From sequence record OZ035747.1: a stretch of DNA of 45,051 nt. One strand, written 5' to 3'. This DNA comes from Vectrevirus T145P2. The notes below the pieces were generated by a model. That model did not search any database. It was not told the origin of the DNA and worked only from the letters and a program-made list of their open reading frames with translations. The first letter of the stretch is position 1. Each line of letters opens with the position of its first letter. Made by a program: the position numbers and the translations under genes. This document shows positions 8,390 through 15,339 of the stretch, one piece after another.

Positions 8390-8589
8390 GCAAGCTGCTG
8401 TACGCCAGAACGCAGAAGAACTTATTCAATCAGGACGTGACCCTAAGCAGGCATACGCCATTGCCAAGGATGTACAACGTCGTGCCTTGAAGAAATCTTC
8501 TGCATCTTCTGCTTAAGCAGGTTAATATCTTAGTGTACACAAGGGCAGACCTAGGTTTGCTCTTAGTGCCATCAAAGGAGGGTGTAGGT

Positions 8590-8697
8590 ATGTTATCTTT
8601 GTTGTGTATACTCAGTGATGTCCTAGGTCGTAAGAGGTACATTCTTAGTGAAGACCAAATAAGGGACGAGAAGATACGGAGGTCGCTCACAAAGTAA
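8590..8697 (+). CDS. small hypothetical ORF (35 aa) at the extreme right end of the gene map
   Basis: GGAGG then ATG 8590 with 8-nt spacing; basic peptide; no homolog recognised. Confidence 0.3.
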   Translation: MLSLLCILSDVLGRKRYILSEDQIRDEKIRRSLTK

Positions 8698-9055
8698 CCA
8701 AAGTCAAAATTTTGATATAGGCGTGTGTGAGGTGTCTCGCCCTCGCCCTCGCCGGATTTCCCCCATATGGGGCCGCGCTGCGGTTGGCTTGGGAGTTGGG
8801 CTGGGCTGGTCCGTCTTCGACGGGTGGCCTAGGGCTTGCCGAGGTCTGCTCTTAGTGGCTGCACAAGGAGAACGCCTAGGAAGCGCTAGGGCACGCCTTA
8901 GTATTGGACAAGGTGATTGCCTTAGTGCAACCGCTTAGGGCTTACACAGGCCGTTTTAGGGCCATTCATGAGCGTTTGACAGGGTGGGCGTGGGTGGGCT
9001 ATCTGTTCGTTTCGCTCCACTACGTTACGCTACACTCACCGCGCTTGTGTATCCT

Positions 9056-9064
9056 TGGTATAAT
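9056..9064 (+). promoter_or_regulatory. candidate host sigma70 extended -10 element
   Basis: TGGTATAAT (TGnTATAAT) in the non-coding terminal region. Confidence 0.35.
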
Positions 9065-9406
9065 CCTGATGGATGGCTTAGGTTAGACTTAGTGGGCTAC
9101 CTTAGTTAAAGCCTTAGTGCTTAGCTTAGTATCAACTTAGTAGTGTACCTTAGTAAGTCTTAGTGTCTTCTCTTAGTGATTGCATAGCTAAAGCTATAAG
9201 ATGCAATTAGGTCGCGGTCGGTAGACCGCTAATAAGAAGTAATAGTAATAAGATGCAGTAGGAGGAACACCAGAAACCTAGCCAACCTAGTCTATCCTAG
9301 CTCTGTATCTATTGCTTTCCTTAGTCTCACATGTTAGACAACCTAGGTTTATCTTAGTAGTTGTGACATGTATCACATAAATAATCTATCTTAGTGCGAT
9401 TTAGTG

Positions 9407-9435
9407 TTGACATAGGCAGTTAACAGGTATACATT
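9407..9435 (+). promoter_or_regulatory. candidate host sigma70 early promoter
   Basis: TTGACA - 17 nt - TACATT. Confidence 0.55.
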
Positions 9436-9658
9436 AGCAATCAGTCGGGAGCGACATTAAACACTCAGGGTGAATGATAGAGAGCGTCCTTAACTATCCG
9501 GCCTAGCTACTGAAGCCGTTAAACAATGTTAGATAGTGGAAGATGGCGCAAGCATAACCTACCACGATAAACCAAGGTTAGCGCAATGCTCTTTAACAAT
9601 TTGCTTAGTGTAACCTGTGTATGCCGTGGTTAATTACTTATTGAATGAGGGATTAACT

Positions 9659-9775
9659 ATGAATTACGAAGAAATGTATGAAGTCTATTTCGACTCATTA
9701 GATGAAGGAGAAGAAGCATTAACCTTCGCTGAGTTTATGGAGGCTTTATGGAGTTTCTATCATGACTCTAAATAA
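9659..9775 (+). CDS. small acidic early protein (38 aa)
   Basis: ATG 9659; first ORF after the host promoter; not in ORF track (<60 aa). Confidence 0.4.
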   Translation: MNYEEMYEVYFDSLDEGEEALTFAEFMEALWSFYHDSK

Positions 9776-9938
9776 CCGTGAACTATCCGTCCTCTTCACT
9801 CTGTTATGCTACATGATTCGTAACAACGAATTACTTACAGATGACGAGTTGGCACTATATCACCGCTTTCTTAACGAAGGTTGGACAGATACAGTTAACC
9901 ATAAACGTGACTTGATGAAGGAGTTAGGCAATGTATAA
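9762..9938 (+). CDS. small early protein (58 aa)
   Basis: ATG 9762; overlaps neighbours by a few nt as is common in T7-like early regions. Confidence 0.4.
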   Translation: MTLNNRELSVLFTLLCYMIRNNELLTDDELALYHRFLNEGWTDTVNHKRDLMKELGNV

Positions 9939-10140
9939 GCATGAGATTTACACGGCTTGCAATAAATCGGCTAAGGTTATCATTGAGATGTACAAGGCAG
10001 AATGTCAGGCGTACAACCTCAATGATGGTACCGAGATGTTTTATCTTCAGTTTGAAAGCAAGTTATCTCACAAACGAGTGATTAGCAGTCTTAATCAACA
10101 CTCTTTAGATTGGGAAGAAGTGAACAGCAATAAACTTTAA
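9931..10140 (+). CDS. early hypothetical protein (69 aa)
   Basis: ORF track; ATG 9931. Confidence 0.55.
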   Translation: MYKHEIYTACNKSAKVIIEMYKAECQAYNLNDGTEMFYLQFESKLSHKRVISSLNQHSLDWEEVNSNKL

Positions 10141-10148
10141 ATTAACTA

Positions 10149-10177
10149 TTGACAACCACGGCATACAAGGTTACATT
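10149..10177 (+). promoter_or_regulatory. candidate host sigma70 early promoter, twin of 9407
   Basis: TTGACA - 17 nt - TACATT, identical hexamers and AGGT before the -10 as at 9407. Confidence 0.55.
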
Positions 10178-10424
10178 AAGCATCAAGACGGCGACGTCTT
10201 TAAAAATCACGCTCTTTAACAATAGAGATTAGGCCGGGAGTATCGGTGTGAGGGATAAGGAGGCTTTCCCACAATTAAACTGGTGGCAAAAGGATTGCCC
10301 AGCTTTATAGCCCAGTTATGGATAGCAATAGCGTAAGGATGGCAGCACACCCGCGAGTCTAATCTCTAGCTCTTTAACAATCTGGCTAGTGCCTTGGTAG
10401 GCTAACTACTTACTAAGGTGAACT

Positions 10425-10637
10425 ATGAACTACTGCGACATCGCTCACGAATTACGCATGGAACGTGAGAAACAAGAAAGGCGGATTATCAAGAAGATGG
10501 CTGTACTGCTTGCACACTATAAGGCAGACAAACAGCCAACACATGATGAGTTCGTTGACTTCTGTAACATGTATCTTAATGTGAGTAAGGCCACTGGTTA
10601 CAGATGGCTTAAAGCACTGAATGATGGAGAATTGTAG
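10425..10637 (+). CDS. early hypothetical protein (70 aa), possible small DNA-binding protein
   Basis: AAGGTGAACT then ATG; C-terminal SKATGYRWLKAL resembles a helix-turn-helix. Confidence 0.55.
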   Translation: MNYCDIAHELRMEREKQERRIIKKMAVLLAHYKADKQPTHDEFVDFCNMYLNVSKATGYRWLKALNDGEL

Positions 10638-10736
10638 TAATAAGCCAGCTTAATAGCTGGCCTATCAAGGCACTAACCTAGCTCTTTAACAATCTGGTTT
10701 GTGTCTTGATAGGCTTACTAACAAAGGTGAACTATC

Positions 10737-10901
10737 ATGACTAACGCACAACGTAAACGCTATGATGCATTGCAAGAGAAACTTGCTGTTGCTTATGCCG
10801 CTTGGCAAGCTAACACAGACAAGAGCAAACACGATAAACTTTATAGTAAAGTGGTTGCAATTAATGCTAAAATAGATAAACTTGTGAATAGTATCTTATA
10901 A
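10737..10901 (+). CDS. small early protein (54 aa), predicted helical
   Basis: ATG 10737 after AAAGGTGA; followed by hairpin 10909-10924. Confidence 0.45.
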   Translation: MTNAQRKRYDALQEKLAVAYAAWQANTDKSKHDKLYSKVVAINAKIDKLVNSIL

Positions 10902-11050
10902 GATAGTTGCTGGCACTAGCCAGCCTATCAAGGCACAAGCCACGCTCTTTAACAATATGGGTAGTCGCTTCTTAGTCTGGATAGGTTAAACCTAGGGTAT
11001 TCTTTTGAGTGCCCTATAATGTAAACTAACTAACTAATGAGGATTAAATC

Positions 11051-11380
11051 ATGGAACGCAACGCTAACGCTTACTACAACCTTCTGGCTGCAACTGTTGA
11101 AGCATTCAACGAGCGCATCAAGTACGATGAGATTCGTGAAGATGATGATTACTCTGATGCACTGCATGAGGTTGTAGATAGCATGGTGCCAGTTTATTAC
11201 AGCGAAATCTTTACTGTGATGGCTGCTGATGGCATTGATGTTGATTTTGAAGATGCTGGTTTGATTCCTGATACGAAGGATGTAACCAAGATTCTACAAG
11301 CTCGCATCTATGAAGCTCTTTATAATGATGTACCAAATGACAGCGATGTAGTTTGGTATGAAGGCGAAGAAGAGGAATAA
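11051..11380 (+). CDS. ocr: Ocr-like DNA-mimic anti-restriction protein (T7 gp0.3 homolog)
   Basis: 109 aa, very acidic; VPVYYSEIFTVMAADGIDVDFEDAGLIPDTKDVTKILQARIYEAL closely parallels the T7 Ocr core as I recall it. Confidence 0.88.
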   Translation: MERNANAYYNLLAATVEAFNERIKYDEIREDDDYSDALHEVVDSMVPVYYSEIFTVMAADGIDVDFEDAGLIPDTKDVTKILQARIYEALYNDVPNDSDVVWYEGEEEE

Positions 11381-11384
11381 TAAG

Positions 11385-11498
11385 ATGGAAAGGCAATATA
11401 ACTTCATATTTTCAGACGGTGTAACCCTGAAATGTTCCTTACGATTTGCGCAGATTCGTGAGGAAGTGCTAGGTACTACATACAAACTATTTAGCTGA
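11385..11498 (+). CDS. small early protein (37 aa)
   Basis: GAGGA then ATG 11385. Confidence 0.35.
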   Translation: MERQYNFIFSDGVTLKCSLRFAQIREEVLGTTYKLFS

Positions 11499-11512
11499 CA
11501 CTATAAGAGAAG
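11489..11512 (+). promoter_or_regulatory. variant phage RNAP promoter-like site
   Basis: ATTTAGCTGACACTATAAGAGAAG; SP6-like upstream half, altered initiation region. Confidence 0.4.
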
Positions 11513-11574
11513 GCTTAACAAGGCGTTGCTACGGTAGCGCCTGATTAAACTTTCACTTACTAGAGGTTAAGATT

Positions 11575-11700
11575 ATGAAACTATCGCCATCCGCTAAAGG
11601 CCTCATTGCAGAACTTAAAGATTCTTTGAGGAATCCAATCATTTGGGCACTTATCTACATACCTTATGGTATCTACCTATTTCACCTCATCACTGAGTAA
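11575..11700 (+). CDS. small hydrophobic early protein (41 aa)
   Basis: AGAGG then ATG 11575; IIWALIYIPYGIYLFHLI hydrophobic segment. Confidence 0.4.
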   Translation: MKLSPSAKGLIAELKDSLRNPIIWALIYIPYGIYLFHLITE

Positions 11701-11763
11701 CTAGCCTATAGCCTACCTGAGTGGGCTATGTGATACTTACTTACACTATATAAGGTGATTACT

Positions 11764-12648
11764 ATGACTACTGAAAACGTCCTCCTGTCTGTTCGTGAAG
11801 CTGCAACCGCTGAAATCAAGCAGCACTTAGACAATATCGGCACTTCTTACATCAAAGTTGGCGCTTGTCTGAATGAATTACGCGGTGATTTCGAAGGTCA
11901 AAAAGACTTTTTAGCTTATGTAGAATCAGAGTTCGGCATCAAGAAGGCACAATGTTACAAGCTGATGAGTGTAGCCCGTGTCTTTGAAGGAGATGATCGC
12001 TTTAAAGGCGTGGCGATGCGTGTAATGCTGGCGCTTGTTCCTTTCGCTGATGAAAATATAATCATGGAGAAGGCCGCAGAACTCGCCGCAGCTGGCAAGC
12101 TGGACACTAATGCCGTAAACGCCCTGATTGAACCTAAGAAAGAGATAAAGACTGAAACGGTACAATCTAAGGCTGAGGCGGTAAAACCGCAGGAGAACGC
12201 TACTGAGGCCGCAGAATCACAGGAAATGCAAGCGCCGCAGGTAGTGCCACCAGCGAGCGAGCAGGAGGCCGACGAATCAGCACCATGGGAAGAGGAAAGC
12301 AAGCCGGAAGCGCCAAAGGCAGCGCCGCTGGATAACACGGCTAATACAGAAAACGCCGCTATGGCTAGCCTCTTAGCACAAATTAAGGCACTGACTGAGC
12401 AATTACAGGCAGCTAATGACCGCATCGCCTCCTTAAGTAGCGCACGCGAAAGCAAGAAGGCAGCCGCACCTATGCTGCCGCAATTCAAATCTTCCTGCTT
12501 CTATGCTCGCTTAGGTTTAAGCGCTGAGGAGGCAATGAAGAAAACAGCAGTTAACAAGGCACGCCGCGAACTGGTTAAGCTAGGCTACGGTGAAGGCCAT
12601 GAAGCATGGCCCTTAATCTCTGAGGCAGTAGAAGAGTTGACTAAGTAA
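11764..12648 (+). CDS. early protein with DUF3102-like N-terminal domain, acidic Ala/Pro-rich linker and small C-terminal domain
   Basis: TAAGG then ATG 11764; 294 aa; LRGDFEGQKDFLAYVESEFGIKKAQCYKLM motif; low-complexity EAAESQEMQAPQ linker. Confidence 0.7.
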   Translation: MTTENVLLSVREAATAEIKQHLDNIGTSYIKVGACLNELRGDFEGQKDFLAYVESEFGIKKAQCYKLMSVARVFEGDDRFKGVAMRVMLALVPFADENIIMEKAAELAAAGKLDTNAVNALIEPKKEIKTETVQSKAEAVKPQENATEAAESQEMQAPQVVPPASEQEADESAPWEEESKPEAPKAAPLDNTANTENAAMASLLAQIKALTEQLQAANDRIASLSSARESKKAAAPMLPQFKSSCFYARLGLSAEEAMKKTAVNKARRELVKLGYGEGHEAWPLISEAVEELTK

Positions 12649-12711
12649 CCTTATCGGTGGCATCTTCTTAGGTGTCACCTATTAAGGTTTCTTTCACTAG
12701 GAGTAAACAAG

Positions 12712-15339
12712 ATGCAAGACCTACACGCTATTCAACTTCAACTTGAAGAAGAAATGTTTAACGGCGGTATCCGTCGCTTTGAAGCTGACCAACAACGCCA
12801 GATTGCATCCGGTAATGAATCAGACACGGCATGGAATCGACGCTTATTGTCCGAACTAATCGCACCTATGGCGGAAGGTATTCAGGCTTACAAGGAAGAA
12901 TACGAAGGCAAGAGAGGTCGTGCACCCCGTGCATTAGCTTTCATTAACTGCGTAGGAAACGAAGTGGCAGCATATATCACCATGAAAATCGTTATGGATA
13001 TGCTGAATACAGACGTTACCTTACAAGCTATCGCTATGAATGTAGCAGACCGCATCGAGGACCAAGTACGTTTTAGCAAGCTGGAAGGTCACGCAGCTAA
13101 GTATTTTGAGAAAGTGAAGAAGTCGCTTAAGGCTAGCAAGACTAAATCTTATCGTCATGCGCACAACGTAGCGGTAGTAGCTGAGAAATCTGTTGCTGAC
13201 CGTGACGCGGATTTCTCCCGTTGGGAGGCATGGCCTAAAGACACCTTGCTGCAAATCGGTATGACCTTGCTCGAAATATTGGAGAATAGTGTATTCTTCA
13301 ATGGTCAACCTGTCTTCCTTCGTACCTTGCGCACTAACGGCGGAAAGCATGGTGTTTACTATTTACAGACCAGTGAACATGTTGGCGAGTGGATAACTGC
13401 ATTTAAGGAACATGTAGCTCAGCTCAGCCCTGCCTATGCACCTTGCGTTATACCTCCCCGCCCTTGGGTATCACCTTTTAACGGTGGGTTTCATACTGAG
13501 AAAGTAGCAAGCCGTATTCGTCTGGTAAAAGGCAATCGTGAGCACGTCCGCAAGCTGACCAAAAAGCAAATGCCAGCCGTTTATAAGGCTGTTAACGCTT
13601 TGCAGGCAACTAAGTGGCAGGTTAATAAAGAGGTTTTACAGGTTGTGGAGGACGTTATACGTCTAGACCTCGGCTATGGTGTGCCTTCCTTTAAACCACT
13701 CATCGACCGTGAGAACAAGCCAGCTAATCCAGTGCCGTTAGAGTTCCAGCACCTGCGAGGCCGTGAACTTAAAGAGATGCTAACGCCGGAACAATGGCAA
13801 GCCTTCATCAACTGGAAAGGCGAATGTACCAAGCTGTATACCGCTGAAACTAAGCGCGGCAGCAAATCGGCGGCGACCGTCCGCATGGTTGGGCAGGCAC
13901 GTAAATACAGCCAGTTTGACGCCATCTACTTCGTGTATGCACTGGACAGCCGCAGCCGCGTCTACGCGCAATCTAGCACGCTCTCTCCGCAATCAAACGA
14001 CTTAGGCAAGGCATTGCTCCGTTTTACCGAAGGGCAGCGCCTCGATAGCGCTGAGGCGCTTAAATGGTTTTTGGTGAACGGGGCTAATAACTGGGGTTGG
14101 GATAAGAAGACTTTTGACGTGCGCACCGCTAACGTGCTGGATAGTGAATTTCAAGACATGTGCCGCGACATTGCAGCGGATCCGCTTACCTTCACTCAAT
14201 GGGTGAATGCCGACTCCCCTTACGGCTTCCTTGCTTGGTGCTTTGAATATGCGCGTTATCTGGATGCACTGGATGAAGGCACGCAAGACCAATTCATGAC
14301 GCACCTCCCCGTCCATCAAGATGGTAGTTGTTCTGGTATCCAGCACTACAGTGCTATGCTACGCGATGCAGTAGGTGCGAAAGCAGTAAACCTTAAGCCC
14401 TCTGATTCTCCTCAAGATATTTATGGTGCCGTTGCGCAGGTAGTAATTCAGAAGAATTATGCATACATGAATGCAGAGGATGCGGAAACCTTCACTTCTG
14501 GCAGCGTGACTTTAACAGGTGCGGAACTGCGTAGCATGGCTAGTGCGTGGGATATGATAGGAATCACTCGCGGCCTGACCAAAAAGCCCGTAATGACACT
14601 ACCTTACGGCAGCACACGTCTAACCTGCCGTGAGTCAGTGATTGATTATATCGTTGATTTGGAAGAAAAAGAGGCCCAACGGGCTATTGCGGAAGGGCGT
14701 ACCGCCAATCCTGTACATCCTTTTGATAATGACCGCAAAGACAGCCTGACACCTAGCGCAGCTTATAACTATATGACAGCTTTAATCTGGCCTTCTATTT
14801 CGGAAGTGGTTAAAGCTCCTATAGTGGCAATGAAAATGATTCGTCAGCTTGCACGTTTCGCAGCTAAAAGAAACGAAGGCTTAGAATATCCCTTACCAAC
14901 TGGCTTCATCTTGCAACAAAAGATAATGGCTACCGATATGCTCCGCGTATCCACTTGCTTGATGGGTGAAATCAAGATGAGTCTCCAGATTGAAACAGAT
15001 GTAGTTGATGAAACGGCAATGATGGGTGCGGCTGCTCCTAACTTCGTCCATGGTCACGATGCTAGCCACCTGATTCTGACTGTATGTGACCTAGTGGATA
15101 AAGGTATTACATCCATTGCAGTCATCCATGATTCTTTCGGTACTCATGCAGGACGTACCGCAGACCTGCGGGATAGCTTAAGGGAAGAAATGGTTAAGAT
15201 GTATCAAAACCATAATGCCCTGCAAAACCTGCTAGATGTGCACGAAGAGCGTTGGTTAGTAGACACCGGAATCCAAGTACCAGAGCAAGGAGAGTTTGAC
15301 CTTAACGAAATCTTAGTTTCAGACTATTGTTTCGCATAA
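12712..15339 (+). CDS. single-subunit DNA-directed RNA polymerase (T7 gp1-like)
   Basis: 875 aa; collinear with T7 RNAP including PFCFLAFCFEY-like [27 protein letters not shown] and IHDSFGTHA motifs. Confidence 0.97.

Follow-up and report, generated by a model that had tools for sequence, protein, structure and literature searches.

The gene at 11051-11380 of the window, by which is meant the whole 45,051-nt stretch of the Vectrevirus T145P2 record OZ035747.1, lies within a run of small open reading frames (ORFs) on the + strand. By megablast of positions 9400-12700, which matched 107 phage records, the closest relative is Escherichia phage ULINTec4 with 98% identity, followed in rank by K1E and further genomes of Vectrevirus (Autographiviridae, Molineuxvirinae). 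As a whole, the window represents, in permuted form, the genome of a K1E-like coliphage of the genus Vectrevirus in the SP6 supergroup. Position 1 of ULINTec4 maps to about 8702 and an SP6-like end sequence starts near 8735; with the left end of the genome at about 8735, the region around 11051 therefore belongs to the early part at the far left of the genome, and ocr sits about 2.3 kb from that end. The genes of this region are as follows.

9659..9775, + strand: 38-aa acidic ORF, SP6 gene 0.6-like, accessory (phrog_2061, E 4.5e-14)
9762..9938, + strand: gene 1, 58 aa (phrog_9275)
9931..10140, + strand: 69-aa ORF, distantly SP6 gene 2-like (phrog_6403)
10425..10637, + strand: 70-aa ORF, K1E gene 2.5, accessory cassette (phrog_26099)
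10737..10901, + strand: 54-aa basic ORF, K1E gene 2.8, accessory cassette (phrog_16783)
11051..11380, + strand: ocr homologue, 109 aa, ATG start and TAA stop, gene 3 of K1E and of K1-5
11385..11498, + strand: gene 4, 37 aa, starting 4 nt past the ocr stop (phrog_11746)
11575..11700, + strand: 41-aa ORF with a hydrophobic C-terminus in the variable gene 5 slot (no PHROG)
11764..12648, + strand: gp6, 294 aa, conserved early protein (phrog_4571)
12712..15339, + strand: SP6-type single-subunit RNA polymerase, 875 aa, a context gene

The Ocr homologue

The initial annotation had read 11051-11380 as an acidic frame of 109 residues encoding an Ocr-type protein, and both readings are borne out. The product contains 29 acidic residues (D/E) and 7 basic ones (K/R), with a pI of about 4.05. 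Its only Pfam match is the ocr family PF08684 (108.9 bits against a cutoff of 25, E 2e-31, profile positions 5-97 of 101), and a T3-type SAM hydrolase was rejected as its identity. Against the T7 Ocr structures 1s7z and 2y7c it aligns gaplessly, residues 7-104 on 7-104, at E of about 1e-27, and among the PHROG families it falls into phrog_2568, 'ocr-like anti-restriction' (E 2.8e-51). Relatives are annotated alike: gp3 of K1E, gp3 of K1-5 and 'protein Ocr' of ULINTec4 are the same gene in the same position, with protein identities of 93-100%.

Ocr is a small, very acidic protein whose dimer imitates bent B-form DNA. T7 Ocr is reportedly a homodimer held together by a hydrophobic interface that includes F53 and A57, according to papers by Zavilgelsky; as judged by sequence alignment alone, the residues aligned to T7 F54 and A58 (Met1 counted) are also F and A in the homologue. 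The whole core is homologous to T7 gp0.3 (PDB 1S7Z, PF08684), and the extreme net charge is shared. Of the 34 acidic residues in T7 Ocr, which has 6 basic ones (PMC3439906), 26 are at positions that are acidic here as well. Combined neutralisation of blocks 25-35 and 59-73 abolishes the activity of T7 Ocr (PMC3439906), and in these two blocks the homologue has D or E at 12 of the 12 T7 acidic positions. At 109 residues against 117 in T7, the protein ends 8 residues earlier and has a shorter acidic tail. This difference is unlikely to matter because T7 Ocr cut to 99 residues is still active (PMC3439906). By analogy with T7, the Vectrevirus homologue may have anti-restriction activity, and its dimeric DNA-mimic fold and its targets would be those of the T7 protein. 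No experiments on K1E-type Ocr were found in the literature searched.

Across about 40 homologues with identity of at least 74%, pN/pS ranges from 0.12 to 0.24; by this measure, the Ocr homologue is under purifying selection. The family as a whole was found in 571 phage records by tblastn. Protein identity is about 80% to gp0.3 of K1F and to the Ocr of KP32-like Klebsiella phages, all T7-like Studiervirinae, and 55-57% to SP6 gp3 and T7 Ocr (55% for SP6 gp3; 57% for T7 within the region aligned by tblastn). That the K1F and KP32-like proteins are closer than SP6 gp3 suggests exchange of alleles between T7-like and SP6-like phages. K1F gp0.3 differs in its length of 169 residues, with a C-terminal extension that is missing here. 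In other Molineuxvirinae, namely phD2B, PP1 and Era103, a T3-type SAM hydrolase takes the place of ocr ahead of gp6 and the gene for RNA polymerase; it serves the same purpose of restriction evasion as an unrelated protein with an unrelated mechanism. The occurrence of SAM hydrolase or ocr in one Molineuxvirinae slot mirrors the T7/T3 alternative.

The ocr gene is already known: K1E, K1-5, ULINTec4 and numerous further records have it annotated, and its presence in these phages is stated explicitly in a preprint on isolates of Vectrevirus. Since the homologue is genuine and already annotated, the Ocr finding itself is ordinary. The positions of restriction sites were dropped as evidence: the first sites of six classic type I enzymes are more than 8 kb from the left end, and sites for EcoprrI and StySPI fall within 2 kb of it.

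Small ORFs around ocr and gene 4

Seven small ORFs had been listed around ocr, five before it (9659, 9762, 9931, 10425 and 10737) and two after it (11385 and 11575), all without a recognisable family. All seven are present on the + strand, and the statement on families holds as well: six of them belong to PHROGs of unknown function, the exception being the 41-aa ORF at 11575, and searches of Pfam, NCBIfam and PDB sequences returned nothing above threshold. The same searches gave nothing above threshold for gp6, which occurs in 213 phage records. In all seven, a Shine-Dalgarno-like motif precedes the ATG by 6-8 nt, and relatives annotate the genes of this region, ocr included (1, 2.5, 2.8, 3, 4, 6 and 7 in K1E; coding sequences in ULINTec4). 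As judged from substitution patterns, purifying selection is clear in 9762, 9931, 10425 and 11385, and there are too few variants for pN/pS in 9659, 10737 and 11575. The small ORFs are mostly real protein-coding early genes in exchangeable cassettes. Any role for them would be by analogy with T7, and an anti-defence or host-takeover function is a reasonable guess from position.

The individual ORFs differ in how widely they are shared. The 38-aa ORF, in which 11 of 38 residues are D or E, is precisely absent from K1-5 and other relatives; its coding evidence is weak, with a pN/pS of 0.46 from a single comparison. The list of open reading frames begins this first ORF at a GTG at 9617. The ATG at 9659 is the better start because the codons upstream of it form the 5' arm of a helix described below, and it is preceded by GAGGGA. 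Gene 1 is widespread in SP6-like phages of Escherichia, Salmonella and Citrobacter, with pN/pS of 0.04-0.34 overall and 0.04-0.20 among close relatives. It occurs in 118 protein clusters, of which the named ones are all 'hypothetical' and many are on contigs of about 44 kb. Its AF2 model is a three-helix bundle (pLDDT 82) for which Foldseek found no PDB match with E<0.5. The 69-aa ORF has a pN/pS of 0.20 against one relative (L010). The 70-aa ORF, with pN/pS of 0.05-0.12 among close relatives, has just 3 clusters in 5.8 billion proteins and a weak C-terminal helix-turn-helix signal (HTH_23, E 0.009), which is under the Pfam cutoff. The 41-aa ORF is shared by just a few relatives (ULINTec4, L050 and L053), and the gene 5 slot of K1E holds a different gene of 75 aa.

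Gene 4 has the closest association with ocr. It lies behind ocr in every SP6-like locus fetched; the fetched genomes with a SAM hydrolase lack it, and so do all T7-like ocr loci that were fetched. It was found in 134 phage records with a lowest identity of 67%, its pN/pS among close relatives is 0.00-0.06, and 19 of its 37 residues are invariant; in some genomes that carry it, Ocr identity drops to 39-61%. By these sequence comparisons, gene 4 is more conserved than Ocr. An exhaustive representative search with gene 4 gave two real relatives, and four long repetitive matches were rejected as junk translations. The AF2 model is beta-beta-alpha-beta with a pLDDT of 85; Foldseek returned no PDB match with E<0.5, the best being Kazal-like inhibitors, which are not significant. 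In T7, ocr is followed by gene 0.4, whereas here it precedes this conserved and unrelated 37-aa gene; no alignment was found between its product and T7 gp0.4. Linked to ocr as it is, gene 4 makes a concrete candidate for an accessory factor of a new kind in counter-defence.

BoxA sites, complementary arms and cassette boundaries

The small genes are interspersed with a second set of features, which are listed here with the promoter candidates.

9407..9435, + strand: candidate sigma70-type promoter (TTGACA-17-TACATT, 10 of 12 matches, consensus match only)
9588..9600, + strand: BoxA1, GCTCTTTAACAAT, exact match to GYTCTTTAANA
9602..9631, + strand: helix 1, 5' arm, directly after BoxA1; pairs with 10154-10182
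10149..10177, + strand: candidate internal sigma70-type promoter (TTGACA-17-TACATT), conserved in SP6-like relatives
10154..10182, + strand: helix 1, 3' arm, overlapping the internal sigma70-type promoter candidate
10211..10223, + strand: BoxA2, GCTCTTTAACAAT, exact match to GYTCTTTAANA
10224..10368, + strand: 145-nt unit without an ORF, from BoxA2 to BoxA3, closed by a 14-bp stem
10369..10381, + strand: BoxA3, GCTCTTTAACAAT, exact match to GYTCTTTAANA
10384..10408, + strand: 70-aa ORF helix, 5' arm; pairs with 10654-10678 (dG -41.7, z -6.6)
10654..10678, + strand: 70-aa ORF helix, 3' arm; pairs with 10384-10408
10681..10693, + strand: BoxA4, GCTCTTTAACAAT, exact match to GYTCTTTAANA
10695..10714, + strand: 54-aa ORF helix, 5' arm; pairs with about 10923-10942 (dG -48.6, z -8.3)
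10923..10942, + strand: 54-aa ORF helix, 3' arm; pairs with 10695-10714
10944..10956, + strand: BoxA5, GCTCTTTAACAAT, 95 nt before the ocr start
10993..11016, + strand: conserved hairpin just before the ocr ribosome-binding site, counterpart by position of the T7 0.3 hairpin
11489..11512, + strand: first promoter-like site for the phage RNA polymerase from the left end, a variant of ATTTACTGGACACTATAGAAG

Sigma70-type consensus matches are no commoner than in shuffled sequence. The phage promoter consensus ATTTACTGGACACTATAGAAG occurs 11 times, and the first such site from the left end lies downstream of ocr, so that ocr and everything upstream precede it. With sigma70-type sites upstream and the first phage-promoter-like site downstream, ocr is probably read early, by the RNA polymerase of the host, as suggested by the consensus matches and by timing taken from T7.

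In its leader, ocr resembles T7 gene 0.3, which is likewise early, near the leading genome end, and preceded by a BoxA and a hairpin. The order of elements is the same as in T7, and so is the 12-mer CTCTTTAACAAT (at 814-825 in T7, the counterpart of BoxA5), which is followed by the hairpin and the ribosome-binding site. The ocr leader folds with a z of -3.5, and in the hairpin 5 pairs are kept despite two-sided changes in K1-5-type and SP6-type relatives. An Rfam scan of 8500-12800 (E<=1) gave a single miRNA-like match on a palindromic hairpin at 11498-11568, which was rejected as chance. The initial annotation had stressed that gene 0.3 is the first gene of T7, whereas ocr here follows small ORFs. 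The difference in rank stands, with gene 0.3 at 0.9 kb in T7 and ocr as the sixth ORF here; the contrast is smaller than stated because K1F has two genes before 0.3 and because several SP6-like ocr genes directly follow an internal sigma70-type promoter and a BoxA. T7 has the layout A3 promoter, BoxA, hairpin and gene 0.3, and in the window extra cassettes are inserted between the internal promoter and ocr.

The BoxA pattern used here is the published functional gamma-proteobacterial consensus, GYTCTTTAANA. In the window it has 5 matches where 0.32 are expected, all on the + strand and all within 9588-10954. The sites are thus confined to the early region read by the host polymerase, on the transcribed strand and downstream of a candidate host promoter. 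The same pattern occurs in at least 20 related early regions, and of 37 ocr loci from IMG/VR, 34 have a BoxA on the + strand ahead of the gene. Related phages carry 1-5 copies, always on the + strand: one in T7 and K1F; two in SP6 and Proteus PM116; and three in K1-5, K1E, Klebsiella F5M1D, Lelliottia phD2B, Pectobacterium PP1 and Vibrio VEN. From these matches, NusB and NusE, for which rrn-type BoxA is the binding site, may bind the phage sites. No paper was found that links boxA to SP6/K1E-like or T7-like phages, and an earlier description in subscription journals is possible.

The 20-30 nt behind each BoxA have their complement in a stretch of 20-30 nt shortly ahead of the following BoxA. 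One such pair forms helix 1, a predicted 29-bp pairing (dG -48.1, compared to -16.8 +/- 3.8 in shuffles) that encloses ORFs 9659, 9762 and 9931. It is present in 19 sequences from the Escherichia, Salmonella, Lelliottia, Proteus and Klebsiella phages examined, with 25-32 bp and arms 450-770 nt apart. The core UGUAUGCCG/CGGCAUACA is kept in all 19 with one variable position, at which the partner base changes too, and the outer parts differ between phage genera and are still complementary in cis. Covariation was judged by duplex energies of cognate and non-cognate arms: the range is -40 to -53 kcal/mol for cognate arms and -19 to -37 for most pairs whose arms come from different arm families. 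Pair counting on alignment A4 was left aside because the gaps set by MAFFT throw the outer helix of divergent sequences out of register, and a position-wise count of covariation is weak evidence because it is fitted to the structure. In the 70-aa ORF helix, compensatory changes are seen in three relatives (L008, L010 and L012). As an alternative, the arm at 10695-10714 could form a local hairpin around BoxA4 with 10660-10678. No long-range partner was found for the arm that follows BoxA5, in the ocr leader. From the predicted pairing, the cassette helices could be cleaved by RNase III.

Differences between genomes break exactly at BoxA. In two relatives (L007 and L013) BoxA2 is joined to BoxA5, and the 54-aa cassette is missing from L008, L010 and L012. 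The 145-nt unit is near-identical in the only 8 phage records that have it and gives no Rfam match; a 20-codon frame with an ATT start is possible at 10274. K1E (NC_007637) has a different set of upstream cassettes, without the 145-nt unit and with other genes 1.5, 2 and 5, and K1-5 lacks the 70-aa and 54-aa ORFs in addition to the 38-aa ORF. Exchange appears to reach further still: a T7-like contig (L036), with an RNA polymerase only 30% identical, shares 10681-10969 at 95% nucleotide identity, a segment that spans BoxA to BoxA and includes the 54-aa ORF (96% amino acid and 95% nucleotide identity), despite an ocr that is only 76% identical. The BoxA and arm repeats could have a role in recombination.

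Two known systems invite comparison. One is the E. coli rRNA operon, whose leader has BoxA, boxC and a leader-trailer helix, with the rrnTAC complex and processing by RNase III. In this operon, a BoxA and a leader strand are followed by a trailer strand beyond the enclosed RNA and by another BoxA before the next helix (PMC10250234). The phage region shares the consensus-identical BoxA, the 5' strand of a 25-32 bp helix directly after it, the partner strand beyond the enclosed genes, the BoxA before the next helix, and a conserved core with covarying flanks as in the leader-trailer helix. It differs in that the phage helices enclose small protein-coding cassettes and have the conserved core UGUAUGCCG where rrn has boxC. 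The nearest described analogue among phages is the PeSL cassettes of T4-type phages (PMC2839356, PMC4122927), in which short repeated regulatory motifs likewise flank uncharacterised small early ORFs and coincide with breakpoints of indels and replacements. There the motif is a promoter-terminator pair, whereas here it is a host antitermination signal with helix arms, in another phage family. The BoxA-bounded cassette layout may be new.

Explanations and significance

It is very likely that the locus comprises a member of the Ocr family, a probable early gene transcribed by the host polymerase, accompanied by exchangeable cassettes of small early genes. A further proposal is tentative and on balance somewhat doubtful: SP6-like early operons may copy the design of the host rRNA operon, and the gene 4 product may be an obligate partner of Ocr. 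Under this proposal, each small-gene cassette would open with a perfect rrn BoxA and, behind it, one of the two strands of a 20-30 bp helix, the other of which would lie past the cassette, just ahead of the following BoxA. Loading of host Nus/SuhB factors at each BoxA would take host RNA polymerase as far as ocr and the gene for the phage polymerase. The leader strand, kept tethered, would pair with the trailer strand, and RNase III would free each cassette mRNA. The repeated BoxA and arms would serve as joints for swapping candidate anti-defence cassettes, even between SP6-like and T7-like phages.

The GCTCTTTAACAAT repeats and inverted repeats might instead be recombination scars or local RNase III hairpins of the T7 style, rather than Nus sites and long helices. 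This reading is rather unlikely, and it draws on two observations: cassette breakpoints fall on BoxA, and the arms of BoxA3 to BoxA5 are one sequence family, for which local hairpins are no less possible and come out as the minimum-energy folds in the prediction. RNase III sites of T7 are local hairpins, and on this reading the phage hairpins might be equivalents of T7 R0.3; the T7 records examined have no RNase III sites annotated. Helix 1, however, is without a local alternative and its distant arms stay complementary in cis as they diverge between genera, while the compensatory changes in L008, L010 and L012 favour the long-range partner. The exact functional consensus of all five motifs, on the transcribed strand and in the host-polymerase-read region only, also argues for BoxA. 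Another reading, that several small ORFs are chance frames in a leader that really works through its RNA elements and promoters, is quite improbable. It would fit the 145-nt BoxA-bounded unit that contains no ORF, the one informative comparison for ORF 9659, the near invariance of ORFs 10737 and 11575, and the extension of ORFs into the helix arm by annotators. It is difficult to reconcile with well-spaced Shine-Dalgarno motifs at every small ORF, with PHROG families for six of the seven, with the confident compact AF2 folds of genes 1 and 4, and with the many synonymous changes and the pN/pS of 0.00-0.20 that 9762, 9931, 10425 and 11385 show between close relatives.

The function of ocr and gene 4 could also be read differently. 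The homologue may be selected mainly for another role, such as against BREX, host RNA polymerase or another DNA-binding defence, with gene 4 modifying or protecting it, for example against Ocr-sensing systems. T7 Ocr does block BREX as well (PMC7261183) and binds RNA polymerase (PDB entries), and the constant company and stronger conservation of gene 4 would suit such an arrangement. Nonetheless this account is unlikely: conservation is complete in the acidic patches that matter for inhibition of EcoKI, and gene 4 is tied to no function by family, significant fold match or similarity to gp0.4. Moreover, another role for Ocr would add to the preferred reading, a restriction-evading Ocr among exchangeable cassettes, and does not exclude it.

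Ocr is relevant to therapeutic K1-specific phages because it lets a phage pass type I restriction-modification and BREX barriers and can trigger PARIS-type Ocr-sensing systems. The leads worth following are the BoxA/leader-trailer cassette architecture and the pairing of ocr with gene 4. If true, the rRNA-operon-like phage operon would offer a compact natural system in which to study how the antitermination complex promotes long-range RNA pairing, and its layout would account for the shuffling of small early genes, candidates for anti-defence, among Autographiviridae.

BoxA motifs and the helices between them

The early gene cassettes, each comprising the small ORFs or ORF between successive copies of BoxA, the host rRNA antitermination signal, are bounded in this phage by five perfect rrn-type BoxA motifs (window 9588-10956). 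The features discussed here are as follows, in window coordinates.

Features of the early region
9588, 10211, 10369, 10681 and 10944: BoxA1 to BoxA5, all perfect rrn-type motifs
9602-9631 and 10154-10182: arms of helix 1
10384-10408 and 10654-10678: arms of the second helix
10695-10714 and 10923-10942: arms of the third helix
10224-10368: 145-nt unit with BoxA at both ends and a 14-bp closing stem
11385-11498: gene 4, 37 aa, starting 4 nt past the stop of ocr
11764-12648: gp6, 294 aa, just 5' of the RNA polymerase gene

The sequence 3' of each BoxA is complementary to the sequence 5' of the next, giving predicted helices of 20-30 bp around the ORFs. These predicted helices enclose ORFs in the manner of the leader-trailer helices of rRNA operons. 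Helix 1, which surrounds the first three small ORFs, displays covariation across the examined phages of Escherichia, Salmonella, Lelliottia, Proteus and Klebsiella. Its 3' arm overlaps a near-consensus sigma70 promoter candidate, TTGACA-17-TACATT, that is kept in most SP6-like relatives (window 10149-10182 for candidate and arm together). Transcripts from this candidate would start just 5' of BoxA2 and would not carry the helix 1 arm.

As a separate observation, the heptamer CTTAGTG occurs as 11 plus-strand copies in the non-coding left-end region (window 8529-9610), with 21 copies in the whole window against 7.7 expected. One copy lies in the 5' arm of helix 1.

The 145-nt unit contains no conventional ORF, its sole reading being a 20-codon hydrophobic frame from ATT at 10274. 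It carries a strong TAAGGAGG motif, has no match in Rfam, and is found in just eight phage records, all near-identical.

Small proteins around ocr and ahead of the polymerase

The first small ORF (9659-9775) approaches the DNA mimic Ocr in acidity, with 11 D/E in 38 residues and a pI of about 4. In K1F, the 169-aa gp0.3 (L006 1114-1623) joins an Ocr domain that shares about 80% identity with the window Ocr to roughly 60 further residues at the C-terminus; genes of this architecture are labelled 'protein kinase' in several records.

Throughout the SP6-like loci examined, gene 4 goes with ocr, and it is missing where a SAM hydrolase takes the place of ocr. Its conservation exceeds that of Ocr itself, with at least 67% identity in 134 records and a pN/pS of 0.00-0.06 among close relatives. 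Its predicted fold is beta-beta-alpha-beta, and no known relatives were found. Overlapping its end is a variant phage-polymerase promoter-like site, ATTTAGCTGACACTATAAGAG, with A, not G, at the expected start. Directly 3' of this site is a long imperfect hairpin with a fold z of -4.7, which may be a processing site (window 11489-11570 for site and hairpin).

Further downstream, gp6 is conserved in 213 phage records of the Molineuxvirinae and Colwellvirinae, including phages of Vibrio, Pseudomonas and Erwinia; no family or name is attached to it, and it has no relative in the PDB.

Gain, loss and exchange of cassettes

Within the first cassette, ORF 9659-9775 is precisely deleted in some relatives, placing the 58-aa gene 1 directly after the same leader. 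The gene 5 slot (window 11575-11700; K1E, L001 2865-3092) shows a replacement: in this phage it holds a 41-aa ORF whose C-terminus is hydrophobic, in K1E an unrelated 75-aa gene. The breakpoints here coincide with the flanking hairpins, not with BoxA. Where related phages (L001, L007, L008, L013 and L036) differ in the presence or absence of whole cassettes, the breakpoints fall exactly at BoxA (window 10224-10368 and 10681-10969). One such cassette starts at a BoxA, contains the 54-aa ORF and extends to the following BoxA; the window and the T7-like contig L036 share it at 95% nucleotide identity. The RNA polymerase of L036 is only 30% identical.
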